From contig NIVC01004807.1 of assembly GCA_002269645.1 (NCBI GenBank), positions 1 through 34,670 on the forward strand: 34,670 nucleotides of DNA, read 5' to 3'. The DNA is from Macrostomum lignano. Its lineage: Eukaryota. Both the position numbers and the translations under genes were made by a program. The notes beneath the pieces were generated by a model. That model did not search any database and had not been told where the DNA came from. It saw nothing but the letters and a program-made list of their open reading frames with translations. Below are positions 13,900-34,670 of the stretch, piece after piece (position 1 is the stretch's first letter; each line of letters starts with the position of its first letter).

Positions 13900-16800
13900 T
13901 CAAATGTAGGCGGTTACCAACAATTCAAAGCCATTGATTGTTTGGTCTCCGTTAGGTGAGACCAAGTGATGCAGCTGGCACAGCAGTTCGCGCAGCTTCG
14001 CAGTTGTCAACCCAGCAGCGTACTCAATGACTGGCCAATCGGCTGATACCTGCTGCTTAACGTCAATTGCTACCAGAGCTCTCATGCTGAGTCGTCTCTG
14101 TGCTAGAACTCTTTGACGAATGTCCGACAGAATGTCTGACAGCACTGGCAGCTGGTCACGGCGAGACTGGATAATTTCGAGTTGTCGGATTACTTTTAAT
14201 CATTCATAACTCGTGATCTGGGAAAAGCCAGCAGTTTCTGCACACTAAGTAGTTACGTACGCAGTCACACAAGCTCACACAGGATGTAAAACGGCCCTGA
14301 CTTTCTCACCGAGAGATAATTGTACACAGTTCTTACCATGCGAAAAATGTTGACTGCCTGACTAAAGTAGACACTGTACTCCACAACCAAATAGCTTTGA
14401 GTGAACATTGCCAGCTGCAAGGTGACTTGGCGTTCACGAGTTCTCAACTCAACAGATGCATTGATTACACCGGCCGATGGCGAGCTTGACGCGGATGCTG
14501 TGGGGGGAGATCCGGTTAAGAATGTTAAGTTAAGTTAAGAATCTCCGCCGCCCCTCCCCATCTACCGAGTGCACCTGTTAAACCAAACCCATCTGGACGT
14601 CTCACCCGGCCAAAGCTCCGGCGTGGCAGAGTAGAACAGCTCCATGAACTGCACAAACTGCAACTCATCCTTGATATCTCGAGCAGCCAGGGTCTCGGCG
14701 CTGTCACCAGCAGCATTTCGCTTGTCGGGACTGGCGCCAGCGCTCAGCAAGAATTGAACCAGTCCAAGGTGGCCTCCAGTGGTGGCTCTGGTCAGCCAAG
14801 TCTCGCCATCTGCCGGGTCGATGGCGTCAATATCGACACCAAGCCGATCAGTGAGCAGGTTCAATAGTTTCACGTTGAACTGGGGAACTGCCATTGACAG
14901 CAGGCGTCTGGGAAGACCTTCAATAAATTCATCGGAACAGAAATCGAAGCTGAACACTATCAGAGCTTCCAGGATTCTTCTGTGACCAGCCTCGACAGCA
15001 AATTCAAGAAGCTGCTGGTGCTGCTGTTCGCGATGATGTCGCTGACGATGCCAGTCCTCTCGACGCTGGTAGCATAGTCTGTCAAGTCAGCCGGGTCGGT
15101 AATAAAAAAGGTGATGTTTTTTACATGACAATCTTTACTAGCTCATCTAGACTTTTTGCGACGCAATTATCACTATGGAGCCTTAAAGTCGTATCTGAGG
15201 CGTGCAAGAGTCGCTTTAGAAGCCTTGAGGCACACTCAGTGCTTCTGCGCATCTGCACATCTTCTGCGCATCTGCACATCTTCGTCACTTAATGAATTAG
15301 AATCGCATTTCACATTTATATCAACTCTATTATTTAGTCAACTTGACTTAGTAGAAAGTTATGCGTTAGCACAGCGACAGCGAATTTTTTGCGACTGGCA
15401 ATTCTTTACAACTCACGTGATGCGCTCGTGACTCAACAGTCACCTCTCCGTCGCATTTCAGTCGTTTTAGCTGTTAAAAAGTCACAGGAGTCACCCCAGA
15501 GTCAATAGAGTTACTGGTGAGTTGTTTGCAATGACTATTTAGCGGTTCTTAGCACGGTAACGTTTTCAACGGGGTTGGGCCGCCTCGAAAGGGTCAAATT
15601 CAGCTGCGTACTAACTCCAATCGACTAGTCTCTGTTGTTATCGAATACTGTTGAAATTCTGTCTCTTTGACTTTGAGTTTCAGAGAAGAACATCGGTAAT
15701 GATACTGCATGGTCGGTAATCGGTAATGTATAAATATGATATTCTGCTGGTTACTTCTCAGGATTTTGGAAAAAAACTTACTTTGAAATTTCAATACATC
15801 CGTTTCATACATCGAAGTAGCAACTCGATGGTGCGCAGGACACACACGGCTACTGCTTCACTCACCTAGCCAGAACTTCAGCCTCCCATCCGCGTTGCAC
15901 AGCGAGTCCCAGCAGACTGACGCCGGAGTCTCCCAGGCTCGGCAGCGGCAGAATTTGTTGAGCTTTGCATCCGCGATGACCCGCCAAGCAGCGCAGCACG
16001 TTTAGGCAGCTTCTTTCGGCGAGCAACTGCGACGGCGTTCGGCCAGTCTTGTCCGTCCTGTCCAACGGGCCGCCGCGTCTGGCGATGAGCTGCAAAACTG
16101 CGCAGGCTGTGGCCTCGTCCGGGCAGTGGGCGCAGCACAGGTGAGCCAAGGTCAAGTCTGAGTGGCTTTTAACCGAGGCTGAGCACTTTCCTTCGATCAG
16201 TAGGTAACGTAGAGCCGACAGTTTCCCTAGCGCGGCGGCCCAGAAAGTTGGAGTGAAGCCATGACGGTCGCGATGATCCAGGGTGGCGCCAGCAGCCTTC
16301 AGATAGCGCAGAATCGCCTCTGTGGCGTCGGGATTTTCGCAGAGGATGGCAGCGACGGGCAGAGTTAGCGACAGCAAGCCGTCTTTGGCGCCGCAGAGTC
16401 CGCTTGGAATTGAGGCTGTTGGGAGCTGCTCAACAAGGGTTAACGAGATTAGTGACTGTCTTTAATATTATAGAAACAAAGAGGACAATGAAAATTCATT
16501 TGTCTCGAGAGGGTTCATGCGTAACTCTTGGGCAAGCAAGTGTAGCCATGCTCAAAAGTACAAAAATATTCCTTACGTTGATCCCTCCGGGGTGACAGTC
16601 GAATACGAAGTTCAAATTAATTCCGCAATTTTTAACCGCTGCATCGAGCAGGTCAATGCGACCCAGAGCTGTCTTATTGATCAGGCAGTGCTGTATAACA
16701 TAGTCGCTGGCGGTCTTGTAAATAATAGGCGGTGGCTTCTTGTTCATTGCGCCCAGTGACCCGGCTACCACCTCTTGTAAGTCGATGGAAGCAAGTATCC

Positions 16801-17753
16801 AAACTGATTGAACAGCTTTGCAGACTTCCTGTTAAGTTTTAGAGGACTCTTCTTGTCGTTTAAACAAAGGGAATATCGAACGAACGAACGAACGAACGAA
16901 CGAACGAACGAACGAACGAACGAACGAACGAACGAACGAACGAACGAACGAACGAACGAACGAACGAACGAACGAACGAACGAACGAACGAACGAACGAA
17001 CGAACGAACGAACGAACGAACGAACGAACGAACGAACGAACGAACGAACGAACGAACGAACGAACGAACGAACGAACGAACGAACGAACGAACGAACGAA
17101 CGAACGAACGAACGAACGAACGAACGAATGAATGAATGAACGAATGAATGAACGAACGAACGAACACACAAACAAAAGAATGGACAAATAAAAAGGAATG
17201 AAAAGCAGTCAAAACAGAACCAGAGAACGAATATATGTAAAACGTGCACCCAACTACCGGTACTATCTACCTTTGCAGCACCGTAGGCTAGCACAATCTT
17301 CATGATCTCGTTAGCATCACGAACAGCTCGACTCGCTACAGCTCCGTACAACGCGTAATGAATCAACGATACACCTTCGAAATCAGTGAATTCGTTCTCG
17401 TCAGTCAGCAGAGTGGGATCCGCTAGCAGCAGTTCGCGTACAATCTCGGGAGATCCGTGAGACACCGCTCGCATCAGCGCGGACTTGCCGCGATTGTCTC
17501 GCATAGCCGGATTGGCCCCGTGTTCGAGCAGAAGCTTGGTGCAAGCCAGGTGATTATAGCCACAGGTAATGTGAAGCGGTGTCTTACCATTTCTAGCCCT
17601 AAACTTGATGTTGGGATCCACCATGCCAGCCTGTAGAATCATTCTGACAGCGCTTGTGTTGTTCTCTTCAAGAGCTGATACGAATGTCGCCATCAGTTCG
17701 GCGGCCGCGCGATCTCGGGGCGACCCGAATAGCCAGCCTCGAAATAGATCCAT
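13900..17753 (-). CDS. Multi-exon ankyrin-repeat protein; approximate exons 17271-17753, 16577-16771, 15866-16425, 14606-15078, 14337-14497, ~13900-14166
   Basis: Ankyrin motifs GKTPLHITC, GKSALMRAV, GFTPTFWAA, GRTPSQL, GETWLTRA, GHLGLVQFLL lie in successive minus-strand ORFs. Phase-compatible GT/AG boundaries were found by hand (0,0,2,1,0). The exon 1/2 junction and the last acceptor have alternatives. Confidence 0.8.
16876..17165. repeat. (CGAA)n tetranucleotide microsatellite in the ankyrin gene intron
   Basis: Directly visible, ~60 perfect units degrading into GAAT units. Confidence 0.98.
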
Positions 17754-18437: not shown

Positions 18438-18571
18438 AGTAGTAGGGGAAATGTGGACTCTGCCGCAGGAATTTCCGTGGGAAAACCACGGGCCTATGTG
18501 TGTAAACATAGCGCCTATGTAAATGCATTGGTGGACTCTGCCGCAGGGAAAGCCACGGAATTTCCATGGGG
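18438..18571 (+). repeat. Left terminal inverted repeat of the Maverick
   Basis: Matches the reverse complement of 34535-34670 apart from a few substitutions and small indels; 5'-AGTAGT terminus typical of Polintons. Confidence 0.96.
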
Positions 18572-19435
18572 GGGGGTCGGAGAGCGAAATATACGGGCTT
18601 TTCATATGACCGATTCCAGGACCAGAATCGGTTCGAAGCTTTTCATATTGTCTGTTCCGTTTTCATAGTCGGTTCCAAAACCGCGATCCGATTCTGGAAT
18701 TCGGTTCGAGAAATTTTCTCGATCTTTTATCGTATTTCTATAGAAACGAAAGGACGAATTTGAAATAACATTTCAAACATTTGAAAAGAATACTAGTTTC
18801 TAGATTTTAAATGAAAATGTTTTTATCCTTTGAGAAGTAATTAAGCTAATTAGACAAAAAAAGAAAAATTTGACGCTTTTCATTTTCCTACTACTCGATC
18901 TTCAATGAAAAAAGCCGAATAGAGCTCTATGTAAATGGATTGGTGGACTCCGCCGCAGGGGAAAGCAGCACAAGTTCCTGGGAAGCCCAAAACTGACTCT
19001 CTAAAAATAGTAAAAAACTTCTCTAGTGTACATTAGCCATAGTTAATTGAAAATTGGGCGAACCTGGCTTCCGATCTCCACAATATTTAAACTTTGTTGG
19101 CAGTGGGAATACATAGGCCTATGTTCATGAGTTCCTCCGCACTTTAGTACGAGTCTCGCAAACTGGACTGAATTTGTTGTGAAAGTGAGCTTGCAAAGCG
19201 CCGTTTATTGCCTTGTTATTGTTTTTCTTGATACTGCTGATTTGGCGCGGGGAAGTGGGGTGCAGGTCTGGGGTGGAGGTCTTTAAAACTAACTGATGCA
19301 CGCGACGGGGGAATGTTATCAGTTTTATTATTATTATTGCTCAATAACGGTAAGAAAATAATTAGTGCATACACATATGTAACGTTTAAACATATCTGTA
19401 TGTGTACATATAGGCGATATTGCCTGGTGATTTGG

Positions 19436-19445
19436 ATATAAGGAC
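19436..19445 (+). promoter_or_regulatory. TATA-type motif ATATAAGGAC upstream of ORF1
   Basis: ~100 nt upstream of ATG 19546; identical 10-mer on the minus strand at 34461-34470. Confidence 0.55.
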
Positions 19446-19545
19446 TGAAAAATTCTACTGAGCCATTAAAATATATTTTGTTGAGATTTAAACGGACTTC
19501 GAAATTTCAAATTTTCACAAAAAACCCTTGATTAAATTTTAAACC

Positions 19546-20550
19546 ATGAGCCATTCTCGGTGCCCATCCTACGTTCATGAGGTGTGTGTCACCTGCAATA
19601 TTAGTATGCTCGGTGGACTAAAGCACCATGTAGCGAATGAAGGCTGCAGTGTCACCCGATGGCTACTATGCCATGAATGCCAGTCCGTTGAGCTCTTCAC
19701 CGTTAGAGGCCAAATCAAAAGGCATAAAAATCATTCGACTGTTAATTGGAGCTCTGCTGAAGACCGCGAGCAGGCACGCATTACTGCTCTGGAAGTTGCA
19801 CGTCAAGAGGAACGCAACAGGGCGGCAGAACGCATTCGAGACCCGGTGAGCACTTTGAGTCAAGTTATCACGAGCTTATGCGGCCGAGTAACGAACACTG
19901 GTGACCAGCCCAACGCCCAGCCTGCTGCTGCTTCTGCTGCTCTACTTGATGATGATGTCGGAGCTCCCCTGCTTGATGCTGCTGATGGAGGTGGCACCCC
20001 TGACTTCGAGCTGAATGAGCTGGACACCGCTTTCTTCGAGAACCTCGATGGTGAGCCTGAAGCACAGGAGCAGCAAGAAATGCAACAGCAGCAGCAGCGG
20101 CGTGCAATCCCTGTTCCCGAAAAAAATATGGAGCGTGCCAGGATGCTGGCAGAAGTCAGCCTGTCCGACGTGATTCGCGATATGGACTCGGGCCCTGCGC
20201 CTCCACCACCGCCACCACCGACTGAGGTTCAGCCTGCGGCCGAAGTCAGCCTGTCCGACCTGATTCGCGATATGGACTCAGGCCCTGCGCCTCCACCACC
20301 GCCACCACCGACTGAGGTTCAGCCTGCGGCCGAAGTCAGCCTGTCTGACCTGATTCGCGGTATGGACTCAGGCCCTGCGCCTGCACCACCGCCACCACCG
20401 ACTGAGGTTCAGCCTGCGGCCGCTAATGAAGTACTGCAGCAGCCAGCACCTCTCTGCATCCAGCTGGTTCTGCCCAACAGTGTTACGGGTGAATATTGGA
20501 TTGACTTGGGAGGGGCTTTCCGTATTCGCCTGAGCAATTCTCAATTCTAA
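19546..20550 (+). CDS. Maverick ORF1, 334 aa: Cys/His-rich N-terminus, acidic and Q-rich middle, three 30-aa Pro-rich repeats; function unknown
   Basis: Uninterrupted ATG-TAA ORF preceded by a TATA motif. CxxC...HH...CxxC...HxxH pattern; DFELNELDTAFFENLD segment; three ~90-bp repeats at ~20150-20420. Confidence 0.75.
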   Translation: MSHSRCPSYVHEVCVTCNISMLGGLKHHVANEGCSVTRWLLCHECQSVELFTVRGQIKRHKNHSTVNWSSAEDREQARITALEVARQEERNRAAERIRDPVSTLSQVITSLCGRVTNTGDQPNAQPAAASAALLDDDVGAPLLDAADGGGTPDFELNELDTAFFENLDGEPEAQEQQEMQQQQQRRAIPVPEKNMERARMLAEVSLSDVIRDMDSGPAPPPPPPPTEVQPAAEVSLSDLIRDMDSGPAPPPPPPPTEVQPAAEVSLSDLIRGMDSGPAPAPPPPPTEVQPAAANEVLQQPAPLCIQLVLPNSVTGEYWIDLGGAFRIRLSNSQF

Positions 20551-21337
20551 ACAAATAATTCTAATGTACCAGTCGTTAAATATTAAATTAGCAAACATTT
20601 TGTGTTGAATTAAATTGCGAGATGATTATCCGTATATTGCAAAAGTGAATAATATTTATTTTTCTTTTCAACATCTCATTGCTATTTTTAAAGTTCATAT
20701 TTATGCAGGCAGTGCGCGTTGATCAAGCTGTGCTTGGGTGTGAATGCAGATTGGGTTTGATTCTGTTTGGGTTTGCAATCTCCTTCTTTAACTTGTGCTT
20801 CTAATAATGTAGCGTATCGTTGCATTTTTAAAATATAAATTTTAAAGCGCAATGAAGCGCAGAATTTTGGAAAAGTTTGCTGCTTTGAGTTATTTTGAAA
20901 TATTTTTAGAATTCGTTTTATAAGACCCTTTTATTAAACCCTTTTATTAGACCCTTTATTAGACCCCGAAATTTGACACGTAACGACAAGACCCGAAGCA
21001 CAACTTTCGAAAATATGTACACTTAATACGAGCGTATATCCACAAATTAGGGATTTAAATTTACTTTTGCAAGAAAAAATAATTTCACAAATATGTATTT
21101 CAGCAAATTTCCTCATCTAATTCTCATCGAAAATGCTCTAAGCCGTGTCATCAACCGAACCGAGATGGCTTCTTCGAGAGACACTTCATCATCATCATCA
21201 GCAAGTGATCGGCCGCTTGAGTCTACCAATTTTGCTATCGAAATCGAACCAACCAGTGAGTCAATCCAATGTGATTAGTAAAGCCAGTAAAGTAGACTCT
21301 TCCCTCTATAAGTACAAGAAAAAGTAGTCATAAAACC

Positions 21338-21925
21338 CGATTCCTGATTCGCCGATTCACCGATTCCCGATTCACGGATTCACCGATTCCCGATTCACCG
21401 ATTCACCGATTCACCGATTCACTGATTCCCGATTCACCGATTCACTGATTCCCGATTCACCGATTCACCGATTCACTGATTCCCGATTCACCGATTCACT
21501 GATTCCCGATTCACCGATTCACCGATTCCCGATTCACCGATTCACCGATTCACTGATTCCCGATTCACCGATTCACTGATTAGCGATTCACCGATTCCCG
21601 ATTCACGGATTCACCGATTCCCGATTCACCGATTCACCGATTCACCGATTCACTGATTCCTGATTCACCGATTCACTGATTCCCGATTCACCGATTCACT
21701 GATTCCCGATTCACCGATTCACCGATTCACTGATTCCCGATTCCTGATTCACTGATTAGCGATTCACCGATTCCCGATTCGCCGATTCCCGATTCACCGA
21801 TTCCCGATTCGCCGATTCCCGATTCACTGATTAGCGATTCACCGATTCCCGATTCGCCGATTCCCGATTCACCGATTCCCGATTCGCCGATTCCCGATTC
21901 ACTGATTCCTGATTAACCGATTCCC
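21338..21925. repeat. Internal satellite of 7/8-bp units (TTCACCGA / TTCCCGA / TTCACTGA), ~590 bp
   Basis: Directly visible between ORF1 and pPolB. Confidence 0.96.
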
Positions 21926-22000
21926 GCACCATAATGAGGTGGAATTAGGATTATGATTTATAAATTTTAACTGCCGAGTGAAACGCGTACACCCAACAAC

Positions 22001-25000
22001 ATGCTAATTCATGCAGGCATTCAATTCAGCTCGGCTATTCACGCTAGTGCGCATGATGACACGCTGCAGGTCAGACGCTTCACTCCAGCATCAAGAGGTC
22101 TCGAGCCATTTCATTTTTTATCATCAACGAAGTTTGCAGTGCTACAGGCTGTTGAGATGAGATTCGATTCATCCGAGAATAATTCTATTCGAGCGCAGCT
22201 CAAGTTCAACATTAGAATGGTGAGAATCAAGGAAGCTGCGGTAATCAATGCAGAAGATAAGTGGATCGCATGCGGTCTTGAGCTTCTCTCTGATCTAAGA
22301 GATTTTGAATTGTGGTGGTTGCAGCAGTTTTCTGAGCTGGAACGCAAGATTGATGCCTACAATTCAAATGGGAGCGGTTGGATAGTTGAGCAAATCAACT
22401 ATTTTGATCTGTGCTCTGCCCTCACTGATCGCATTCGCTACTATCGTGGACGATGCGCGAATTTTTCTTTGCCCAATCAGCTGGCCGTTAAGAAGGCCAT
22501 AATCAACCCACCGAGCGATGGAAACAATTGCTTTCTGTTTGCCTGTCTCGCTTACCTGCACAACAGAGATCCAGGTGTGATGAAGTCTTGCCATCGACTA
22601 ACAACTTACAGCAGATGGTTGGATGAAATCGATCTGAGCGGCATCGCACTACCAGTCGCAATTTCCGATTTAGACGTTATAGAGGAAAAGAATTCCGAAA
22701 TCTGTTTCACAGTTTTTAGCTGGGAAGATGATGAGGCCTATGTCATTCGCCAGCCTCTTCCTGGGATTTGTGCCTCTCGCAAGGTTATTCCTCTACTCTT
22801 GCTTCGCAACTCCAGCACCGATGATGCTGATGATGATGGTGGTGGTGATGAGAATTGTGGGACTGGACACTGGTGTGCAGTTTCGAACCTGGACCGGCTC
22901 CTGAACAGCAAAAAAGGTCTGAGGAATCGCAAATGGTGTGAGAAGTGCATTTCTCCGTTTCGATCCCAGGAAGAGTTGGAGCAGCATCGAGACAGCTGCA
23001 ATCCTCAACTGAAACCAGCCATCATGGAGCGCATGCCTGATGCAAGTAGCAACACAATGCAGTTCATGGCTTGGGAAAAGACAATCAGTCCCCCATTTGT
23101 TGTCTACGCAGATTTTGAAGCTCTGAACACCCCACGTGAACCAGTGGAGTCTGAAAGAGAAGTTACTGTCACCAAGTTAACTGAGCATGTACCTGTAGCT
23201 GCTGGCTACATTGTTATTCCAAGAGAGGGTATGAGCAGCAAAATTCTGAGGCCGAGTGAGGATGTTTTCCTCTGCAGCGGACCCAATCCGAATTCTGTCG
23301 TGAAACAGTTTTTGGCCTCACTCGAACGTCTTGCTCGTGAAGTTTATGGTTGGAATACCGAGTTTAGTCATCAGATTGCTGACAGAAACAGAGATGACAA
23401 CAGGCGCAGCTTTCAAGATGCCCACAGTGCTATTTATGCAATGCAGTGTTTATTTCATCTTCTGACAAGCACTGGGATCACGACCACCTCAGCGGTGAAT
23501 ACAAGGGTGCTGCCTGCGCTTCGTGTAACAAGCTTGCTCGGCTAAAACGGCGATTTTTGCCAATAGTTTTCCACAATCTTCGCGGATATGACCTGCATTT
23601 GATTTTCTCAACTGCGCTGGGTGACATGACTGGTTGGAGGGTGAGCGTCATCCCCCAAACTGCCGAGTCGTACCTCTCCATGAGGGTCGAGTTCCAGATT
23701 GATGAGTATGAGAAAGATGGCGTAAAAAAGCCCCTGTTTTTCACGCTACAATTCATCGACTCACTGCAATTCCTACACAGCAGTCTATCTCAACTTATTA
23801 AGAACTTGCCGGAGGACAACTGTCCCATCACTAATGCGATGCGATCAAAGTATCCAAATCTTTCAAGCGATGTACTGTTTAGTAAGGGAGTTTTCCCTTA
23901 TGATTATCTCTCGAATTTGAATGTGCTTGATGATCGCCAACTACCAAAAGTAGAAAGCTTTTTTAACCGACTCACCAACAGCCACTGTACCGAGGCGGAG
24001 TATCGGCATGCGCAGAAGGCCTGGACTGAATTCGAATCTACAACATTGCGCGATTACATGCTCTGCTACTTGGAGCTGGACATCAGGCAACTAGCAGATA
24101 TCTTTGAAGGGTTTCGAAGGCTGAGTTTGCAGGAAGACAAGCTAGATCCGGTGCATTTTGTGTCAACTCCAGGCCTATCATTCGCTTCTGCACTAAAGTC
24201 TTCTCAAGTCAAGATCGAACTGCTAACTGACCTCGAGATGTATAAAATGTTTGAAAAAGGAATTCGGGGTGGAATGTCTTTTGTCAATGTACATCATGTC
24301 CAGAGCGAAAGTAGCGATGATGATAATGAACCAGCAGGTAGGAGTTTACTGGCTGTTGATGCTAATAACCTTTATGGTCATGCGCTCACAATGCCCCTAC
24401 CTGTTGGTGGCTTTCGCTGGCTCAGTCAAGAGGAGCTCTGCTCATGGTCCGAGTGCCGCTTTCTTTCCCTGGATGATGACGCTCCAATCGGCTACCTTGT
24501 CGAAGCGGATTTGCTCTACCCAGCCGAAATCCACACGGCAACGGAGGATCTTCCATTCGCCCCAGAGAAAAGGTGTCCGAATTTTGAAGAATTTCCGCAG
24601 TACATGCGAGAATTATGGGTACTGCTTCAACATGACAATGATCATTCTCAGCATCATCAGCAGCAGCAGCCCGACGCGAACACGACTGAGAATCCTACCG
24701 TTGCGCGCTACCGTGGAGTACAAAAATTAATGCTCACATGCCACAACAAGTTTTCCTATGTACTGCACTCGTCTGCTCTCCGATTCTATCTATCGCACGG
24801 AATGAAGTTGCATGGGCTCCACAGGATGATCGAATTCAGGCAAGAACCTGTCTTCGCGGACTACATTAAGATGAATAGCGAGAAGCGCTCTATGGCGAAA
24901 AATGATTTCGAGAAGGATTTCTATAAACTGAAAAATAACTCCCTGTTTGGCAAAACAATGGAGAACGTGCGCAAGCGGCGGGACATCAGAGTGTGCAGTG

Positions 25001-25756
25001 ACAAGAAAAAAGCCAAGACTGTTTCTTCTCAACCAAATGTCGCATCATTCACAATCATTACGCCGTCACTCAGCATCTTTGAGCTTCAAAAGCGCGAAGT
25101 AACTCTTGATCGCCAATTTTCATGGGGCAGTGTGTTCTAGATCGCTCCAAGATCATCATGTATCGACTTTACTATGACAAAATAAAACCCATGCTAGAAT
25201 TCCGTGATGGAGCAAGAGTTCGAGTTTGCGGTGGCGATACAGACTCGTTGTTTTTGAGCTTAGAGAACCTTAGTTTGCAGAGAGAAGTGCTGCCAATCCT
25301 GCATGCCGAAGGCCTCTTGGACACCTCCAATTTTTTCACTAATCATCCTCTCTTCTCGAATCGGCTAAAGGCCAAGCTAGGCTGCATTAAAGATGAAGCT
25401 GGTGGACTGCAACAGATTGAGTGGGTGCTGCTAAGGCCCAAGCTCTATTCTTTCCTCGCTGAAAGCTCGGCGGCATGCAAAGCAAAAGCAAAAGGCATCC
25501 AACGAAGCGTGCTGAAGAATGAAGTCTCCCACGACGACTACGTCAAGATTTTCAAGGGGGCTTCAAAGCTGTCGCTCACTGTTCGTCGAATTGGAAGTGA
25601 GAAACATCGCGTTTTCACCATTGAGCAACGTAAGCTCGCTCTCAGTATCTGGGAGGACAAGCGAGCGTGGACTGGCTCGAATCAAGTCTTCCGTTCGGCC
25701 ACTTTCAGCTGTTAATCAGGGGTAGTCCGAAAAGGACAGCGGACTGCTTAGAGTGA
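22001..25756 (+). CDS. pPolB: Protein-primed family B DNA polymerase, three apparent 1-nt frameshifts (~23420, ~25110, ~25685)
   Basis: GSGW motif; KKAIINP..DGNNCF and GHWC (OTU-like protease dyad); C2H2-like WCEKC..H..SC; Exo I YADFE; DHDH..G...CxxCN insertion; FHNLRGYD; DSLQF; KGVFPYDY; motif A DANNLYG; motif B KLKNNSLFGKT; motif C GGDTDS; LRPKLY; KAKAKGI; repaired C-terminus NQSLPFGHF...stop at 25754-25756. The true start is uncertain. Confidence 0.96.
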
Positions 25757-26468
25757 TGCTTTGCACATCTGTGTAACCTTGGCGTTGAAATTTATTGACT
25801 TTTACTTATGTACTCCATGAATTGTTTCAGTGGTTTAATTAATCTGAATGATGATGATGATGATAATGATGGATGATGATGATAATGACAATGCTGGAAC
25901 GAATAGAGCCAATTCAGTTAGTTACATATTTGTAGTCTCTAAGCAACTAACTGAACGTAACATTTTCGAGTTGAGTTGTTCCAGATTTATTTCAATACGA
26001 ACTTGTGAAAGCCATGTTGGAATAATTTGCGGCATATTGGTCTGGCTTTCCCTTTTTTATTATCCTTGAATTTTTGCACAATTGAATGAACTGAGTTACT
26101 GTCCTTTTTTATCTTTGCTAGCTTTGCTACTCATATTTTTTGTAACCATTATCCAATGATTATCTGAAAAATATTGGCTTCCTTTTTCATTTCTGCTAGT
26201 TCTTGTTCGTTTTTGTCTTAGCAGTGCATAATCTGAGTGATGGGTGTGCTTTTTTTCTTGAGTTGGTTGTGGTCTGATTAAATTTTCTATACTCAAACTA
26301 ATATTGCGATTTCAGTTATGAAAATAAAGAAAAAGTCGATCGAAGTCTGATTTTCAGGTATATTGATTAAAATGCACGCATCTTAATACGTGGTATATGC
26401 ATGCAAGATTATTATATTTTTGTTCAGCTGTCGTCTTTTTATTTAATTGTTGAAACATATGGTTATTA

Positions 26469-27031
26469 TTAGCACAGAAAACGGACAAGCAAGGAAAAGT
26501 CGGAAATTAGCATGCTCATTGTTTTTGCACCACTGAGAACGAATGAGCCATTGTGAAAAAGCAGGCATTTGCAGAAGCTTAGTTTGCAGATCAAAGCAGA
26601 AAATGATTCTGGCTCATATTGAGCACTTGGTAAAGTGTTCACAAGATTAGCGAGGGGAAGTGCTCTGCACAAGTCAATTTTCCCATGCGCAGTAATAGTT
26701 TTAATCCGCACATGCACAGTTTGATGAGGCAGCAGTTGAGCAGGCACTCTGCGATGCAGCATAGCCACGAAGCGACGAGCGGCCCTGACTGAGGCCGAGT
26801 AGCTCCGGGCGCCACAGATACTCAGTTGTCCAGTCGGATAGAGCAATAGAGTCACTCTGGGACTCCGCATCCTCTTGATAAGCACTCGGGGCCAGACGGG
26901 CGATAGATGACATGAGCCATGCTGAGAGCCAGTTCCCGCAGAGGCAACTGGGCACCCCTGTCTCCAGCAAGTCTCAGATCCACGCCGCCGACCAGATTGG
27001 TCACTCGCAGGGCTGTCGCAGGTGTACTCAT
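26469..27031 (-). CDS. TATA-binding protein (TBP)-like protein, ~187 aa, one apparent 1-nt deletion near 26890
   Basis: From ATG 27031: MSTPATALRVTNLVGGVDL...LPLRELALSMAHVIYRP, then after the shift LIKRMRSPRVTLLLYPTGQLSICGARSYSASVRAARRFVAML...VRIKTITAHGKIDL...AQYEPESFSALICKLSFCKCLLFHNGSFVLSGAK. This matches both TBP core repeats by eye. An AATAAA follows ~25 nt after the stop. Confidence 0.85.
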
Positions 27032-27034
27032 TTA

Positions 27035-27545
27035 GAGAGTCCTTTCTGTCAGTGGTGCTGTCTTTGCGAGCTTTTGAGTGGTGCGGGCACACCTCGCTTC
27101 TTAAGTTGATACAGAACTTCGGTTTCAGCCAGTTGTAGTACAGTAATACATTTTTCACTGCACAACCAGTATCAGATGCTTGAATCAAAGGTGATCCCAG
27201 ATCCTCTAGGTTGTACACCTGTCTGCCAAGCAGCTCAGTCAGAAAGATGGACTTTTTCACCCCGCTTGTCCAGGTGGGACCGTAAGCAATGTTTAGAATG
27301 TCATTAGCCAAATGCATGTACGGTCGGGATCCATCTGTCCACTTGAAATGATGCAAATTCTTTGAGAGCTTTCTGTAATGTACTTGCATCTCAGGTGAGA
27401 TTCTGTCCCATGAGAACGGAGAGGCGTACACGTGATGAGTGATATGGTAACTGCCAGCCCGGACTTGGGCAATGGCCAGCTCCTTCACAACGAAATCTCT
27501 GCTCGATCTCTCGCGTGGGAAGCCTTGGAAGTCAATATAGTTCAT
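27035..27545 (-). CDS. Maverick accessory protein with DEDD/DnaQ-like exonuclease-type N-terminus (IDFQGF...FVVKELAI); 3' end uncertain
   Basis: Motifs DFQGF, KELA, HH.KW..G..PY, VYNLEDLG, CAVKNV..YNWL recall a family seen in invertebrate Mavericks and insect DNA viruses (recognition from memory). As sequenced it reads through into the TBP-like second half. Confidence 0.55.
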
Positions 27546-27557
27546 GATCGGATGGTT

Positions 27558-28280
27558 TCAAGACGCAAGATGTCGGGAAGCCGACTCAGTTCCCCTTCTT
27601 AAATAGTTTTTTTTCCTGCTCAGGTGTAGCCAGGCTCTCCCACTCCCGAATCCCTTAACTGTATGATGTGCAGGGGTGGCCTCTGGAGAAACAGCCGGTT
27701 TAGAAATTAGCTGCCTTACTGACTTTCCTATAGCCGAAGCTGGGATGTTAAGCTTTTTGTCTTGAAGCAATGAGACAAACTCACTCCAGCCTACCGGCTC
27801 GCTGGCACATTTCGAATCCCTCACCGCACTGTGAAACAAATCCAGGATGTTTGAGGAGGGTATTGTCTTCCCAGAAATTTGCGCCTCGCCATTTTCGGAC
27901 ACCCGAATCAGAGAGGGATTGCCAGATAGGATGGCCCATAGACTGCGGGCTCTCGCTTTAAACTTCTGCGGCACGGATTGGGTGATCTTTTCCCCCCAGC
28001 TGCTTGGTGCAATATCTGTTTTCAGCATCTTTGCATCACTCGCAGGTACCGCACCATCCTTTCCAGTCCGCTTGCGCTTGACCAGCAAACTCTTCATCGC
28101 ATCATGGTACATGGCAGCTTTCACATCGTCTGGGCAATCCTCGGCAAGCAAAATATCATTGCATTTCCTCTGCGCATATCTCACAGCAGTGTCCATTTCA
28201 GACTCGACTGGCTTCAAATTCTGTGTGAGCATGTCGTACTCTGACTTGGGGATCAGAACCATTTCTGAGAACTTATTCAT
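27558..28280 (-). CDS. Conserved Maverick core hypothetical protein, 240 aa
   Basis: MVLIPK start and GEAQISGKTIPSSNILDL..P.GW.EF..L..IP motifs typical of a conserved Polinton ORF near the ATPase; the PW/PZ/PM label cannot be assigned securely. Confidence 0.75.
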   Translation of the reverse strand: MNKFSEMVLIPKSEYDMLTQNLKPVESEMDTAVRYAQRKCNDILLAEDCPDDVKAAMYHDAMKSLLVKRKRTGKDGAVPASDAKMLKTDIAPSSWGEKITQSVPQKFKARARSLWAILSGNPSLIRVSENGEAQISGKTIPSSNILDLFHSAVRDSKCASEPVGWSEFVSLLQDKKLNIPASAIGKSVRQLISKPAVSPEATPAHHTVKGFGSGRAWLHLSRKKNYLRRGTESASRHLAS

Positions 28281-28584
28281 TTTGCTTCTTTTTCTTCACT
28301 AGCTTTATTAGAATGTAGAGAATTTTGATAAAACCCGTATTTAGCAGATCCGCAGTTCTTCTATGTGTAGAAATTTTGCGGATTATTTGCTTTTGCTTCA
28401 CCAGCGCTGCCTTTTGAGTGAGTGAGAACGACAGAGTGTTTTGCAATAGGTTGTAGCAGGCCTCAATGAGAAATTCACGTACGGCTTTTGGACCCGCTCT
28501 GATCAACAGACGTTTAAAGCTGATGGAATATTTCGGTGACGCGAGAACATCAAACAAACTTTCATGTGAGTCAAAGGTTTCCAT
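28273..28584 (-). CDS. Small conserved basic Maverick protein (~103 aa)
   Basis: FLIEACYNLLQN..L...QK..L.KQK.IIRKI pattern typical of the small Polinton ORF downstream of the ATPase; stop overlaps the next ATG. Confidence 0.7.
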   Translation of the reverse strand: METFDSHESLFDVLASPKYSISFKRLLIRAGPKAVREFLIEACYNLLQNTLSFSLTQKAALVKQKQIIRKISTHRRTADLLNTGFIKILYILIKLVKKKKQNE

Positions 28585-28637
28585 TATCATTAGTGTTGCA
28601 GAATATAGAACAAATGGCAAAATCTCGGCTGTTATTC

Positions 28638-29291
28638 TTAAGTGTAAACCAGGTGGGGTCGCTGATTGGGCAGGATTCGAGCCCGGACCCGCAGCTCATC
28701 AGGGGTGGAAGGGTGAAAATCCAGGAGCAGGTAGGCTCCCCTGCCGTGCGATGTCACGTGCTTGAACACTGACAGCAGAAATCCGGGCTTCTCAGCAAAG
28801 CACTGCCTGCCCAGCGCTGCAATCTGCAGCTGGTCTCTGGGGTTCTTCATGATCACAAAGTACATCGCATTCAGACTCATTGTTCGCAACTCCTTCCCTT
28901 TAAAAAATACATTTTGGGTGAGCATAACCAGAAAGCAGGGCAAATGATGGGCAATTCCAGTGAAAACATTTCGCATTGCAGCAGAATTGGAAGTTTCTTC
29001 AATCAGGTCATCAAATACAACCAGGTCATTGGGTCTCAGTGCGGTCTCGATACTGCTGGGAAATCCCTGCTGCAGGTGCACGCCGAGACTGCTGAGCTCA
29101 GAGTGTGCTGCTTGTGAAATCCCGTAGTACCACAGAACTCTCCCAGGCTTCACATCAAACAGGACATCCTTGTATTGTATCAGATGTTTCACGAAGGTTG
29201 TCTTTCCTGCATTTGTAGGCCCGCTGACAATCATGCAGCTTCCCTGTCGCAGGCGCACATCATAACAGTTTATCCGCTCACGTGTTTCCAT
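28638..29291 (-). CDS. ATP: A32-like (FtsK/HerA superfamily) genome-packaging ATPase, 217 aa
   Basis: Walker A GPTNAGKT, Walker B LVVFDD, HH..LVMLTQN.F, R.QI..LGRQ, YLLLD motifs; uninterrupted. Confidence 0.95.
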   Translation of the reverse strand: METRERINCYDVRLRQGSCMIVSGPTNAGKTTFVKHLIQYKDVLFDVKPGRVLWYYGISQAAHSELSSLGVHLQQGFPSSIETALRPNDLVVFDDLIEETSNSAAMRNVFTGIAHHLPCFLVMLTQNVFFKGKELRTMSLNAMYFVIMKNPRDQLQIAALGRQCFAEKPGFLLSVFKHVTSHGRGAYLLLDFHPSTPDELRVRARILPNQRPHLVYT

Positions 29292-29323
29292 CGCCTGTTG
29301 AGCTAAATCCTAATTTTGAAAGT

Positions 29324-29842
29324 CTAATTAAATTTCTTTTTTCTTAAGCAACTCTCAAACCTTTGCAGCATTCTCTCATTCAAGTGGCTCTGCTGATTTG
29401 CATGGAGGTGCCGCAGAACCCACTCAAACGAGCGCTTGAAACGAAACTTTTGATAGGCAAACAAGAGACAGAACAAACCGCATTTAGCAGAGTCACAGCT
29501 CTGAATTCGATTCACATTGCTACGTAAGTAGAATGGAGAATACCAAAAGGATTTCAGTGCTCTGTGAATGATCTCTAAAGTGCTGGAGTCCCAGCCCAGA
29601 GAGTTAAAGAGTTCTATGGAATTCTCCTTATCAGCATAACAAACCACCCAGTGACCGAAGGATGAGCTGTACTGAAGCAGAAAGAAAATAAACTTACATC
29701 GAGATAAATTTCTTTTGAGAGTTGCTCGCTGAATAAAGTTTAAAGCATAAGATGTTTTATTTATTGAATTCAAGACAATAATTAAACAGTTATTTTGTGG
29801 CAAAAAGCTTTTAGCCAGTTTAAGCAGTTGAAAAGCATCCAT
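29324..29842 (-). CDS. PRO: Adenain-like cysteine (maturation) protease, 172 aa
   Basis: GHW, FNSLG, RIQS..S..CGLFC motifs in the expected order; uninterrupted. Confidence 0.88.
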   Translation of the reverse strand: MDAFQLLKLAKSFLPQNNCLIIVLNSINKTSYALNFIQRATLKRNLSRCKFIFFLLQYSSSFGHWVVCYADKENSIELFNSLGWDSSTLEIIHRALKSFWYSPFYLRSNVNRIQSCDSAKCGLFCLLFAYQKFRFKRSFEWVLRHLHANQQSHLNERMLQRFESCLRKKKFN

Positions 29843-29865
29843 ATTAGCGTTGCGCCAGCGTACTC

Positions 29866-31145
29866 CTAGGATGGAAAATCTAGCAGAATCTCCCTGTGCT
29901 TGGTGACCTCAATCAGTGAGTCATACAGGCACATAACAATCAGAGATACAGGCTCCTCCAGGGCCTGTCGGAAGCGAATCTCCAGCCGCAAATTGCCCTC
30001 CTTCTGTCCGTACCACAGGGCCGCTCCCTCAGGCGTGAGATCGAATGCGAAAGCTGTGTTGCCGTTGGAGAACAACTGGTAGGGGACCCACGGAACCGAG
30101 TTGGTAGGGCTGGCTGACTGACAGCTTTTCAGGTAGTGCAAGTACTCTCTCACGAATGAATTATTCTCAGGTGCAAATGCAGCGTGGCACATGGCTTCAC
30201 CACCTTTCTTTAGTGCTAGCTGGCTGAGGTTGAAGCTCTGGAACTCGAAAGGGCTGGAATGGTGATGGCCATTGAAGGCTCGGTGGTTCACGAAGACCAG
30301 CATAACGAACTTCGGCAGTTTGCCATGGGTGAATCCTTCAATGTTTTTTGACTGAATTCCCTGGGGTAGAATAAAGTTTTGCATTTCGGTTCGCTCGATG
30401 GGGTAGAGTGCGTTCTGATTGGTCAGTCCCTGTTCATGCGCCAGGCTGATGTGAGGCGCCACTTTGACTCGGCGCAGGTTCAGAATGCAGTGGGAGATTT
30501 CCATTCGGTAGGCTGTGTTGTTATCATCTGGGGTTCGATGGCGAATGCAGTATCGCTGGGCATCAGCTTGATGTGCAGGTGTAAATTGTTCAGCAGCAGA
30601 ACAGGACACTGGAAATGTCGCTGAGCAGTGGTCCCGCATACTCCACCCAGCGGGACTCCCTGTGTCTCTCGCATGCCCCTCAGCAGCAGTTTCGGGTTCC
30701 AGGAATCCGGCGGGGTAGAACTTTAACTGCTGAGCATCGGATGAGCCATGAGAGCTTTTAGGTAGGCATGGTAGGGGTAGAGCTGGTCTCCACCTGATAC
30801 AATGCGCTGGTTGATGCTCACGATTACATCTGAGAATGCCGTAGACAGGACAAAGTTTTCTGGGTGCACCCCACTGTCTCTGCGCTCAGTGACAACTCCA
30901 TCGGCATTTCGAACCTCCTCCCTCATCAAAGCCCCGCCAAGCCGGACTAGGCGACAGCGAATATACAGGAATGAGCTCAGCAGATCAGTGTACTCATCAG
31001 CCGATGGATGACAGTCGAATTCAATAGGTGAGTTAGTAGCAATAGAGTTCACGGGGTGAATATCAACATATGTGGATTTTTCAATGGCAGTCTGCAGCAT
31101 GGGGGACTTGAACAAATCGAGTCTCGGGTTGAATCCGTAAGCCAT
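29866..31145 (-). CDS. PY: Major capsid protein (double jelly-roll, PY), at least three apparent 1-nt frameshifts between ~30730 and ~30535
   Basis: LDLF..P..QT.I....VDIHP, PIEF, EYTD, LYIRC, YPY.AYL, EYAGPLLSDIFQ..LLN..L.IKL (repaired), G.LPK, F.F..FNL, FAFDLTP, G.LRLEIRF, Y...IEV motifs typical of Polinton PY. Confidence 0.92.
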
Positions 31146-31147
31146 TG

Positions 31148-31556
31148 CTATGAGAGCGAGTCCAGAACACGTTTCACAGTCTTTTTGCTCACTTTTTGCT
31201 TTCCTTTGCCTGTTTTCTTGCTTTGAGTTTTAGACCTCCCTTTCTTAGGTTTATTTCGCCCTGACTGGCTTCTTTTCGGTGATTTCTCCGTCTTACTCTT
31301 TTTCTTCTTTTTTGTCTGCTTCTTACTGCCCTGTTTGACTAGTCGCTGCTTTGGTCTGTTTCTATTGCTTCTGCTGTTGCTGCTGCTACCGCTGGCGGTG
31401 GTATGCTGGCTTTGATAGCGATATTGACTTTGTGGAAGCTTCTGGAGGAGGCTGGTAAGTCATGATTCCTGGAAAACTCCCACAGCCATAGAGCGCCGGC
31501 TTTTGGCTTCCTGCCAGAGTCCCTGAATACTGACGAATCAGCTGTTGGTAGTTCAT
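31148..31556 (-). CDS. Small, highly basic putative core/DNA-condensing protein (~135 aa, one frameshift; missing from ORF track)
   Basis: ATG 31556 overlaps the penton stop (ATGA). N-terminus MNYQQLIRQYSG...YGCGSFPG. After a shift: ...NRNRPKQRLVKQGSKKQTKKKKKSKTEKSPKRSQSGRNKPKKGRSKTQSKKTGKGKQKVSKKTVKRVLDSLS-TAG, 2 nt before the MCP ATG. Confidence 0.7.
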
Positions 31557-32359
31557 TGTATTAGCCTTTCCCGAATATGAACTGTGAGCAGAACAGGGCT
31601 GCTGCTCCGAGCAGTCAGTGAGTAGCCAAAGATGTCACGCAGTTGAAATCTAATGCCATGTAGAAAATTAGCTTTCTGAATCGGGAAGAAAATTGCTTTC
31701 TTAAACACTTTGCTCATGTAGCTGCCCCATTCGACATCGGATGACATGCTCACAGTTCGCAGCACGGAGTTCCAGTTACAGTTTGTTCGCTCCACAATGC
31801 TGCAGTGCAAGTTGATCAGGTTGGTGGGCGGACAACCGATGCAGCAGAGTGACACTTGCCGTCCGGGTGGGATCTTCACAGGCTGGTTTCCGAATCCCAG
31901 CCACTGCAGAATTTTACTTGATGGAAGGAACAATTCTGCTCGAGCCGTGTTGTTGAGCACTACGTTCTCAACTCTTGGATTTCAAACTTTATGCCAATAT
32001 CTCTAGCGCTGCTTCGCCCCATTAAACCGGACTCATCAGCTTCCATTTCAGACTCCCTTTCGCTCATTGCATCGAAGAACAGTGACTCAGAGTTGGCCAG
32101 CAGCTCATTCAGCGCTCACCAGTTCCTCCACTCTAGCAAAGCGTCCGGGTTGAAGAACCAGGGCCTCATGCTCTCTTCCATCTGAGACAGTGAAGCAGTA
32201 AGGCTCGTCAACATTGAACCATGCAGCAGGCAGATGGATTTCAGCCAGACCTGCCTCATAGTCCACATTTCGATCCAAGTAAATAGGTGAAGGCAGGTGA
32301 AAATGAAAGTCACTAGGAGTACCTTCAGCATTTTCGCTACAAATGATGATGCTTCTCAT
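31553..32359 (-). CDS. PX: Minor capsid (penton, PX) protein, two apparent frameshifts (~32110, ~31965)
   Basis: S.F...LPSPIYL...YEAGLAEIHLP..W.N start; LGF; INLHCSIVE; VLRTV; FFPI..I.FQLRD..G; TVHIR end, typical of Polinton PX. Confidence 0.85.
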
Positions 32360-32389
32360 AGTTGGGAATGGCTGCACAATGTCGGTATC

Positions 32390-33454
32390 TTACACTTTTC
32401 TTAAGTCCTTCTCATCCACCCAGTCAGTGGACTTGTAGCCGGCCCACTTGACGAGATATCGGATCTTACCCTTCCGCTTCTCAGTCTTCAGAACCTTCTC
32501 GATTACATACAGCCGCTGCGAGTCCGGAACAGCTTGCAGCTCATGCTCGTGGAAGAGGCCTCTATGTCTTCCCCCTTCATGTCTCGAATCCTGTACATGT
32601 AGGGATAATGCTTTGGTGCCCTAACACTATGGTGTACACCTCTTCGCTCCAGTTCGCCTTGTATCCCTTCCTGAAGAGTCTGGGTGCATTGGAAATCCGC
32701 ACTGATTGGTTTTCACAGAACTTCGGTTTTCTCAGTTTCTCAACTGTCTCAATCGCTTTCCCATCATAAAGGTTCATCCACACTTCAGTCTCGTTTGCTT
32801 TGCTGACATTCATTGGTGTAGTCTTGATGCTTCTGTGGAAAGTATTGTTATAGGACTTGACCAGTTTAGGCAGCACATCAAGCCATTGTAGAGTGCTGTT
32901 GTGAGTAAAGTAACGCCACATCTTGCTTTTTAAAGTTCGATTCCATCTTTCAATTATGGCTGCTTTGTGCTCACTGCTAGTTGGAAACGCCAGAATCCCC
33001 GGTCTATGCAGAACTGGCGAAAAATTGCGTTGACAAACTCCTTTCCCTGATCTGTGCGGACAGTGCGCGGCTGCCGCTTTGAGCTCTTCAGCATGCTCTC
33101 AAACGCAGATTTCACTTCTGCCGCGCTCTTAGACTTCAGTGCTCTGGCCATTGCAAATTTAGACAAAACATCAATGCAGGTGAGAATGTATTTATGCCCG
33201 CGATTATACTTTGCAAATGGAATCATTTCCACCAGATCCATCTCCCACTGATCATCAATGGCTCTCACTATTATTGGCGCCCTTGGAAATCGTACTCTAG
33301 CTGGCTTATGCAGAGTGTGTACTGGCTGCTGACTTAGCCACTGCTCAATGCTCTTGACTCCAATATGCTCGCCTCTTTTTCGCAGTTCAGGTTGCAGTTT
33401 TGAAGAACTGCAATAGCTCGCAGGCTGATTTGGGTTGAAATAAATTTTTTCCAT
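32390..33454 (-). CDS. INT: Retroviral-like DDE integrase with C-terminal chromodomain, about three apparent frameshifts
   Basis: YFNP..PASY, WL..QP..TLHKP, QWEMDL (D), IDVLSK, TDQGKEF (D), AAIIERWNRTLK (E), YN...H.SIK.TP, FRKGYKANWSEE, chromodomain YVIEKVL..YLVKWAGY..DWV. Confidence 0.96.
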
Positions 33455-33599
33455 TTTCGGAAACAAAGAAACATTTTTTTTTAGGTTTTCTTAAGACATT
33501 GAAAATGCATAGCGCATGTGAAAGCAAGCATATATTTTTTTTCAAACAAAGAGATGGAAAGCAGGTCTGGATAAATAGCTCGTAGCACAGAGTTTGTCT

Positions 33600-34386
33600 C
33601 AATGTCAGAGGGTCTGCAATCAGTCGAAGCACGGCCTGGGCAGCTTCATGGCATCCAATCTGCGCAGAGCGAAGCGGCGGCTGCTTGCGTTTCCTGGCGT
33701 TCTCAGCGGCGGCTGCTTGAGCTCGGAACTGGTACCAGACTGGGTCCTCTTGCAGATCAGTGTCCTGCCGAGGAATCGCTCCAGCTGCAGGCTTGGTCAG
33801 TTGCAGAGGCGTTGAAGTGGCAAACGCTGTGTCGATTTGCAGATTGGATGGCATGCCAGCCTCGCCAGCAGCAGCAGCAGCATCGTCCTCCGCCTTCACT
33901 ACCGGCTTGGTCTCTTCCGCGTTTTCGCCAGCATCGTCTTCATTTTCGATGCTGTCGGAGGAAGATCCCGACTCCAGCTCGTATGCATCGGAAATCTCAC
34001 GTGGAGCCGATAGCTGCTCGTCGATCCAATCGTCCGTACTGCCACAGCTTTCGCCACAGCGGCGGTGTCAGCGGCACGGTGTTCCGCTTAAGAAACTCGT
34101 CGCAGCAGTCCTCCGGCAATCGCTTTAACCAGATAATGCCGTTTTTCACTTCGATGAACTTATCGAAGCCGAGTTTGACAACCTTTGGCTGTTTGTCCAA
34201 GGCCGCCTTGACAAGCGATCGCTTCAACTCCTTGAGCTTCTCCCACTGACGGATGTTCAAATTGAAGCCGGGGACTCCAGGTTTCAACTCGCAGTGCTGC
34301 CATGTCGGTAAAATTTTCTGATAGCAATGAACATAACTCCTTCATACTCCTGTATTTGCGAGTTTATATCCTTCGCCGATGTCCAT
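33600..34386 (-). CDS. Protein with two tandem PC4/Sub1-like ssDNA-binding domains plus an acidic tract; about three apparent frameshifts; C-terminus uncertain
   Basis: Repaired: MDIGEGYKL.QIQEYEGVMFIAIRKFYRHGST.ELKPGVPGFNLNIRQWEKLKEL (cf. human PC4 core [53 protein letters not shown]). A second, weaker repeat follows: KLGFDKFIEVKNGIIWLKR...VPLTPPLWRKLWQY.DDWIDEQL. Then ESGSSSDSIENEDDAGENAEE. Confidence 0.75.
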
Positions 34387-34460
34387 GACTTAAAAATCTA
34401 ACAGAATAAACTATCTCGTCGAAAAAAAATCGTTTTTTCATGAATCAAAGAGATTTTTTG

Positions 34461-34470
34461 GTCCTTATAT
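34461..34470 (-). promoter_or_regulatory. TATA-type motif ATATAAGGAC upstream of the PC4-like gene
   Basis: ~75 nt upstream of ATG 34386, outside the TIR; identical to 19436-19445. Confidence 0.55.
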
Positions 34471-34534
34471 AGACTAAACCACTGCAGCAGACATACAGCA
34501 ATAGAAAAACATAGGCCTATGTCTCTCACTAAGG

Positions 34535-34670
34535 CCCCATGGAATTTCCATGGCTTTCCCTGCGGCAGAGTCCACCAATGCATTTACATAGGCGCTATGT
34601 TTACACCACTACATAGGCCCGTGGTTTTCCCACGGAAATTCCTGCGGCAGAGTCCACATTTCCCCTACTA
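34535..34670 (-). repeat. Right terminal inverted repeat of the Maverick (last ~2 nt outside window)
   Basis: Reverse complement of 18440-18571. Confidence 0.96.

Follow-up and report, generated by a model that had tools for sequence, protein, structure and literature searches.

Organization of the Maverick element

The DNA analysed here, contig NIVC01004807.1 of Macrostomum lignano (34,670 nucleotides; referred to as the window), contains a 16 kb Maverick element that spans positions 18438 to 34670 and is flanked by inverted repeats (Table 1). The assignment is based on the terminal repeats and on a protein-primed DNA polymerase B, an rve integrase, and an adenovirus-type protease, all of which score over the Pfam cut-offs. 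The ATPase presumably has a packaging role. The putative major capsid protein has an Atlas score of 0.97 with low recognition, and the capsid families are found on 10–18% of the members of its top clusters. The ORFs of the element include no RNA polymerase.

Table 1 Positions of element features in the window.
Feature	Position	Strand	Basis or remark
Left terminal inverted repeat	18438..18571	+	arms 60 nt, 100%, and 72 nt, 97%
Protein-primed DNA polymerase B, in pieces, true start uncertain	22001..25715	+	PF03175, E 1.3e-17
TBP-like gene, two-repeat core only	26469..27031	-	Pfam PF00352, intact natural siblings, sibling-ORF fold
Conserved ORF upstream of TBP	27093..27545	-	dN/dS about 0.15 in first 150 codons
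TTAAGAA box, 73 nt before TBP start, within upstream ORF	27098..27104	-	51 of 58 loci by pattern, plus L054
TTAAGAA box, 57 nt before ORF starting at 27545	27596..27602	-	first letter different in second lineage
TTAAGAA box, 51 nt before ORF 28590, overlapping ATPase stop codon	28635..28641	-	kept in three lineages
P-loop ATPase	28638..29291	-	weak P-loop matches only
Adenovirus-type cysteine protease	29324..29842	-	PF00770, E 9.4e-5, over cut-off
TTAAGAA box, 56 nt before ATPase start	29341..29347	-	motif search
Putative double-jelly-roll major capsid protein, in pieces	29866..31145	-	ESM Atlas neighbours, Capsid_NCLDV/DJR-like families, lead only
One-mismatch box, about 100 nt before major capsid start	31242..31248	-	exact box at like place in second lineage (L077, L078)
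TTAAGAA box, 148 nt before basic ORF starting at 31556	31698..31704	-	equal spacing in second lineage
Integrase (rve) with chromodomain, in pieces	32393..33454	-	PF00665, E 1.1e-15; PF00385, E 1.1e-5
TTAAGAA box, 45 nt before putative minor capsid start	32398..32404	-	motif search
TTAAGAA box, 40 nt before integrase start	33488..33494	-	kept in second lineage, flanks 11/40 identical
PC4-like coactivator gene, frameshifted here, 3' limit approximate	33950..34386	-	sibling ORF L077
Canonical TATATAAG box, 85 nt before PC4-like gene	34464..34471	-	same in L077 and L078
Right terminal inverted repeat	34535..34670	-	extends to contig end

The PC4 (Sub1)-like gene is the second general transcription factor homolog of the element. 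Its sibling ORF in locus L077 (5304–6033, minus strand) matches the Pfam PC4 family PF02229 over the cut-off (E 6.6e-10), and the single-sequence fold of the PC4-like ORF is poor (pLDDT 44.5). The ORF of 150 amino acids upstream of the TBP gene matches no family in Pfam or PHROGs, and contains an acidic motif that we take to be exonuclease-like. In most copies it stays open for about 110 codons across TBP repeat 1, reaching 278–283 amino acids in total (window 26700–27031; L002–L070). Dual coding of this overlap was rejected on the basis of an upstream-frame dN/dS of 0.7–4.7.

A TATAAA sequence lies at 21959, ahead of polymerase B; none of the four other lineages inspected showed a TATA box immediately ahead of the polymerase at the corresponding position. 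Tandem 8- and 15-nt repeats lie in window positions 21291–21956 ahead of the polymerase; L082 and L083 have acidic coding repeats in roughly this place. A plus-strand ORF of 334 amino acids (19546–20550) has a Cys/His-rich start, three 30-residue repeats, and a TATAAG sequence about 110 nt upstream; it has no match in Pfam or PHROGs. The remainder of the window holds a GC-rich region resembling a non-LTR retrotransposon, whose endonuclease, reverse transcriptase, and RNase H motifs were recognized by eye and are spread over broken frames (200–4050, plus strand), a host prominin-like ORF with a weak Pfam match (8518–10527, plus strand), and host ankyrin-repeat exons (14562–14894 and 16860–17753, minus strand), about 700 nt from the Maverick.

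Identity and integrity of the TBP gene

A sequence-only reading of the window had located a TBP core at 26469–27031, interrupted by a one-base break. The limits are correct, and the identification is borne out by both profile and fold. The N-terminal part of repeat 1 and the remaining TBP sequence lie in different reading frames of the minus strand, and the C-terminal piece alone matches PF00352 in two stretches (E 3.4e-18; 65.7 bits, cut-off 22.9). The break is one single-base gap near 26901 relative to sibling locus L002, with no mismatches over the gene. A natural intact ORF of 187 amino acids is present in 16 of the 19 closest sibling loci, and one of 185–196 amino acids in 49 of 58 element loci fetched from the M. 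lignano genome, a share biased upwards as the fetched loci are the best matches. The window copy of the element has several further frameshifts, and read-derived contigs covering the TBP region differ from it by single-base gaps at at least 12 places; therefore, the frameshifts are likely assembly errors or copy-specific decay. Residues of the TBP were called from the natural intact siblings.

The predicted structure of a natural sibling ORF is a TBP saddle (pLDDT 95.3, pTM 0.86); the model input included an 86-row TBP alignment, so that its likeness to TBP is partly built in. The 44 Foldseek matches listed at E ≤0.001 are TBP chains, the best being human TBP bound to DNA (E 4.9e-14, TM 0.83). 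The VIA Z-score is about 20 over 172 residues, compared to 8.7 for the best non-TBP row.

The gene has a fixed place in the Maverick gene block: the same ORF lies upstream in 55 of the 58 loci, and the polymerase end downstream in 51. The gene belongs stably to a Maverick family that is old and present in many copies. A search for the family scored 150 of 330 candidates, 12 of which represent two host genes in three copies each, and the remaining 138 correspond to about 110 places, as counted from the listing; a subset of these places was analysed. Since the host genes are present in triplicate, the number of independent insertions may be about one third of these places. The two host genes, TBP (L021) and what we take to be a TRF2/TLF-like paralog (L027), are both intronless over the core. 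A database protein of M. lignano is 98% identical to part of the element TBP, and automatic annotation labels fragments as "TATA-box-binding protein" with no mention of an element.

Origin, selection, and mosaic structure

The element TBP shares 28% identity with the host TBP core. In a tree of 58 sequences, a subset of 162, the element family groups with two further proteins, P0010 and P0015 (support 100/96), followed by short divergent proteins; bootstrap values were not yet fully stable, and long-branch attraction may play a part. The AU test rejects placing the family with host TBP (p 0.013); its grouping with the TRF2-like paralog does not occur in the best tree but is not rejected (AU p 0.17). 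The dN/dS ratio is 0.10–0.25 in repeat 1 between the two main lineages and 0.07–0.35 in repeat 2 among diverged pairs with estimable dS, dS being saturated in 23 of 66 pairs. The element TBP is under purifying selection. Selection, divergence, and tree topology together indicate that the gene is old within the Maverick family, and they uphold the earlier view that it was not passively captured from the host in recent times. The frameshift of the window copy might suggest a captured host TBP fragment that decays without function. This reading has hardly any probability left, and is refuted by the intact ORFs in 49 of the 58 copies, dN/dS well below 1, the rejected host grouping, and the relatives in other data sets.

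Among 1.84 billion representatives, a profile search yielded five matches at E ≤1e-30: four from the element family, and the metagenome protein P0010, which is 50% identical to the element TBP. No TBP relative was recovered from viral contigs searched with the element alignment, P0123, or P0031, and metagenome scans gave nothing apart from one chance match (L079); TBP was not found in Mavericks of other hosts in the scanned viral contigs and metagenomes. Looser alignments recovered three loci from viral contigs (IMG/VR L071–L073), giant-virus-like in gene content as judged by eye. Short divergent TBPs of 170–195 amino acids occur in metagenome and Logan data (P0012, P0018, P0025, P0029, P0031, P0042, P0044, P0051, P0123, P0146, P0150), some on contigs of 7–25 kb, and several branch near the element family. 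Those near the family may come from other Polinton-like elements.

Within a lineage, copies are 93–100% identical in nucleotide sequence up to about base 300 of the TBP gene; past this point identity falls to 65–85% in repeat 2 and 35–75% beyond. A sharp recombination boundary lies at the junction of repeats 1 and 2, at about window position 26700, and L054 and L078 have an additional crossover upstream. Two or three capsid-side lineages are joined to nine repeat-2 alleles (49–78% identity) and polymerase ends (48–80%), and the spacer alleles are deeply diverged as well. Co-travelling of repeat 2 with the polymerase is weakly supported (Mantel rho 0.27, p 0.058, nine loci). The variation of repeat 2 is mainly in the helices, with 4.6 residues per column versus 2.1 on the DNA face.

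The DNA-binding face of the element TBP

Residues were compared in 12 natural sequences, from nine loci and three Logan proteins (67–69% identity). The yeast numbering was anchored through PDB chain ranges and through host TBP, which shows the expected letter at 44 of 44 positions. N69, V71, T112, L114, F190, F207, and the TFIIB stirrup glutamates E186 and E188 are invariant in all 12, and R105, R107, and the basic residues of helix 2 are kept. Equally invariant is a set of DNA-face substitutions: F99P, A100R, F116Y, K120Q, V122S, T124C, Q158K, N159T, V161T, and V203K. P191 is lost throughout (Ser in 11 sequences, Thr in one), R196 is variable, L189 is mostly Ser, and E93 on the TFIIA side is replaced by Ile or Val. 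The canonical combination of N69, N159, and Pro191 is retained only at N69.

The intercalating wedge consists of F190 and F207, a Tyr at F116, and a Pro at F99 that is preceded by an invariant Trp, so the four phenylalanines of canonical TBP are not all present in the gap-free register. This register, with Pro at F99, is favoured by MAFFT and hhalign; a shift by one residue would place Trp47 at F99 and Pro48 at A100. The residues that had been read as kept (N69, R105/R107, F190, F207, and the stirrup glutamates) and as changed (F116 to Tyr, N159 to Thr, F99 lost) from the broken window copy are the same in the intact siblings. F99 is absent from intact copies too, so its loss was not produced by the frameshift. 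The suite of DNA-face changes is largely visible by eye in P0010 and in P0015, the latter 35% identical to the element TBP. These comparisons support an altered DNA face. The missing wedge aromatic of the gap-free register and the Ser at position 189 could weaken binding to DNA and TFIIB.

A TTAAGAA box ahead of element genes

Gene starts were fixed beforehand, and the motif TTAAGAA was then noticed by eye upstream of them. The window contains 13 copies where 5.4 are expected (reached in 0 of 100 shuffles). The element contains seven copies on the minus strand and three on the plus strand, the latter in or opposite coding sequence and tied to no start; between 26469 and 33600, the count is seven to none. 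Six minus-strand boxes are positioned 40–73 nt ahead of the integrase, putative minor capsid, ATPase, ORF 28590, ORF 27545, and TBP starts. The box is thus present in 6 of 11 upstream windows, a number reached by 1 of 100,000 random placements and by none of 20,000 best-7-mer controls. It is absent before the protease, ORF 28280, PC4, and polymerase genes.

In a second lineage, separated by about one synonymous change per site, six sites are the same letter for letter, and the ungapped flanks agree at 137 of 240 positions, with the site before ORF 27545 left out. This conservation is an upper bound, because the second-lineage sites were located by searching for the motif itself and five of the seven window sites are in coding sequence; one site overlaps a stop codon. 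Protein constraint explains part of the conservation, since five sites are coding. Four sites use the Leu codon TTA and the Arg codon AGA, which account for 18 of 287 Leu and 45 of 179 Arg codons in the element ORFs. This usage and the integrase flanks, identical at 11 of 40 positions, argue against protein constraint as the sole cause. The box falls in different reading frames in the two lineages only before ORF 27545.

With the preceding letter, the box reads YTTAAGAA, with C or T at position 1, T at position 2, and G at position 6. CATT, CACT, or CATC words were seen by eye 23–30 nt downstream of several boxes, at the expected place of an initiator.

Baculoviruses use the late element TAAG as a start-site motif. 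TTAAGAA contains TAAG, ends in a possible acceptor AG, and precedes tightly packed genes at ATG spacings that vary from 40 to 148 nt; it might accordingly be an RNA-level signal, either a trans-splice acceptor or a start-site motif, with the TBP acting elsewhere, for instance at terminal TATA promoters. We regard this as improbable, as conservation extends to the two A residues that follow the AG, the upstream flanks at most sites are purine-rich rather than pyrimidine-rich, and the element ORFs include no RNA polymerase. Slightly less probable still is a non-transcriptional role, in which the TBP, a DNA-bending fold encoded beside replication and integration genes, would bend the terminal repeats or tether the integrase to target DNA. 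TTAAGAA occurs in neither terminal repeat and marks gene starts instead; moreover, the TFIIB stirrup is conserved and the element also encodes PC4.

A candidate late-gene switch

We propose that the element TBP is functional, with a re-tuned DNA saddle, and probably drives late genes through YTTAAGAA, to which its binding is predicted. Cellular TBP reads the 5' half of the box through its C-proximal repeat. Pro191 admits nothing but T at position 1, three substitutions in this repeat alter the specificity at position 2, and a G can be accommodated at position 6 (PMC1636458, accessible part). We infer that the lost Pro191 and the changed residues 158, 159, 161, and 203 fit a box with C or T at position 1, T at position 2, and G at position 6, as the loss of Pro191 would permit C at position 1. 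If Trp47 rather than Pro48 takes the place of F99, the orienting proline now resides in repeat 1 instead of repeat 2. Such a move, if true, would suit a box with a variable position 1 and an invariable position 8.

In the proposed sequence of events, host machinery would first transcribe genes with a canonical TATA box, namely PC4 and perhaps the polymerase. Leaky or read-through expression would yield some element TBP, which would bind the YTTAAGAA box, and its acidic stirrup would recruit host TFIIB and RNA polymerase II without the TFIID context. The ordinary TFIIB route appears more likely because the TFIIB glutamates are kept and there are no extra domains. Since the TBP gene itself has a box, the protein may amplify its own expression in a positive feedback, which would need a first trigger. 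The integrase, capsid, and packaging genes would then be turned on as a late class. This arrangement suggests that the element redirects the host transcription machinery to its own late genes. Weak points are that the capsid box is imperfect in the window and that spacings of 100–150 nt occur. Co-variation of protein and box is not seen, because the box is constant while repeat 2 varies between alleles.

Host TBP may be able to use the box weakly. The box might even be read by host TBP/TFIID or by the TRF2-like paralog, with the element TBP serving mainly as a decoy or competitor, either by titrating out TFIIB, NC2, or Mot1 or by dampening host transcription. Such a role, which the sequence-only reading had offered as an alternative, would suit the retained E186/E188 and basic helix-2 residues, the changes at F99 and N159, and the tolerance of wild-type TBP for G at position 6 (PMC1636458, accessible part). 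We consider it unlikely: up to four of the eight box positions depart from TATAAAAG, and the box is absent before all three host starts examined, a very small control. Furthermore, a protein that acts only as a decoy has no need to keep a derived DNA face near-invariant down to 35–50% identity. The loss of Glu93 on the TFIIA side also makes a decoy less fitting. The reprogramming of initiation through altered specificity, also put forward in that reading, now has alongside it the changes on the DNA face and a candidate promoter box specific to the element, with the binding step a prediction from sequence.

A self-encoded TBP and its box offer a concrete mechanism by which Mavericks and Polintons could time their genes without an RNA polymerase or a helper virus. 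The pair argues that the elements keep a regulated, virus-like programme. More broadly, we tentatively entertain, at somewhat less than even odds, that animal Mavericks run a herpesvirus-like early-to-late cascade with their own TBP and PC4, and that their families evolve orthogonal TBP–box pairs. Natural TBP–promoter pairs of altered specificity would provide a test of how TBP reads DNA.

The TTAAGAA box shared ahead of element genes appears to be new, whereas a TBP in a Polinton-like virus has already been labelled in print. The label is in the legend of Fig. 5 of PMC8502044 and in its preprint, and the main text of that paper does not analyse the gene. The main text of PMC8502044 does not contain "promoter", "late gene", or "PC4", and the searched part of its supplement gave no matches for TBP, TATA, or Macrostomum. 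We found no published analysis of a Maverick TBP, late box, or PC4 in the freely accessible texts searched. The sequence-only reading had named no TBP from Mavericks or Polintons and called for a literature check; the label makes the gene less novel than that reading held.

Comparison with known systems

The element shares terminal inverted repeats, a protein-primed polymerase B, an rve integrase, and a cysteine protease with Mavericks, Polintons, and adintoviruses (PMC8502044, accessible part); its weakly matched ATPase and putative jelly-roll capsid protein would be further common features. Its TBP has the two-repeat saddle of cellular TBP (PF00352; host L021), including N69, F190, F207, and the stirrup glutamates. 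It differs from it in the lack of an N-terminal extension, a six-residue insertion before helix 1, and about eleven fixed changes of the DNA face. Like TRF2/TLF, a divergent TBP paralog that no longer fits the canonical TATA box (PMC10005294, accessible part), it has diverged from TBP and is predicted to fit that box poorly; it keeps F190, which the host TRF2-like paralog L027 lacks.

Viral TBP folds are also found among the TBP-like proteins of Nucleocytoviricota (BFVD matches at E 3.5e-11 and weaker), which are 9–20% identical to the element TBP in structure alignments. Giant viruses use their own RNA polymerase, whereas the 16-kb element encodes none.

The closest working parallel, by analogy, is ORF24 of KSHV acting on TATTWAA. 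In beta- and gammaherpesviruses, a non-canonical late box is recognized by a TBP mimic whose DNA face is polar (PMC12529657, accessible part). Both systems combine a virus-encoded TBP fold, a more polar DNA face, and a non-canonical TATA-like box at late genes (putatively late in the element), the shared box of the element having been found computationally. ORF24 uses host RNA polymerase II, and the same is proposed for the element TBP. However, ORF24 is a large multi-domain protein that binds the polymerase directly and works in a six-protein complex, whereas the element TBP is a bare core of 187 amino acids with neither a polymerase-binding N-terminal domain nor an extra C-terminal DNA domain. 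ORF24 keeps four phenylalanines and, in the accessible part of the same paper, lacks the TFIIB glutamates; the element TBP has a wedge of two Phe, one Tyr, and one Pro/Trp, and keeps E186 and E188 (PMC12529657). Unlike ORF24, the element TBP is recognizable by sequence, and the parallel does not imply a common origin of the two proteins.
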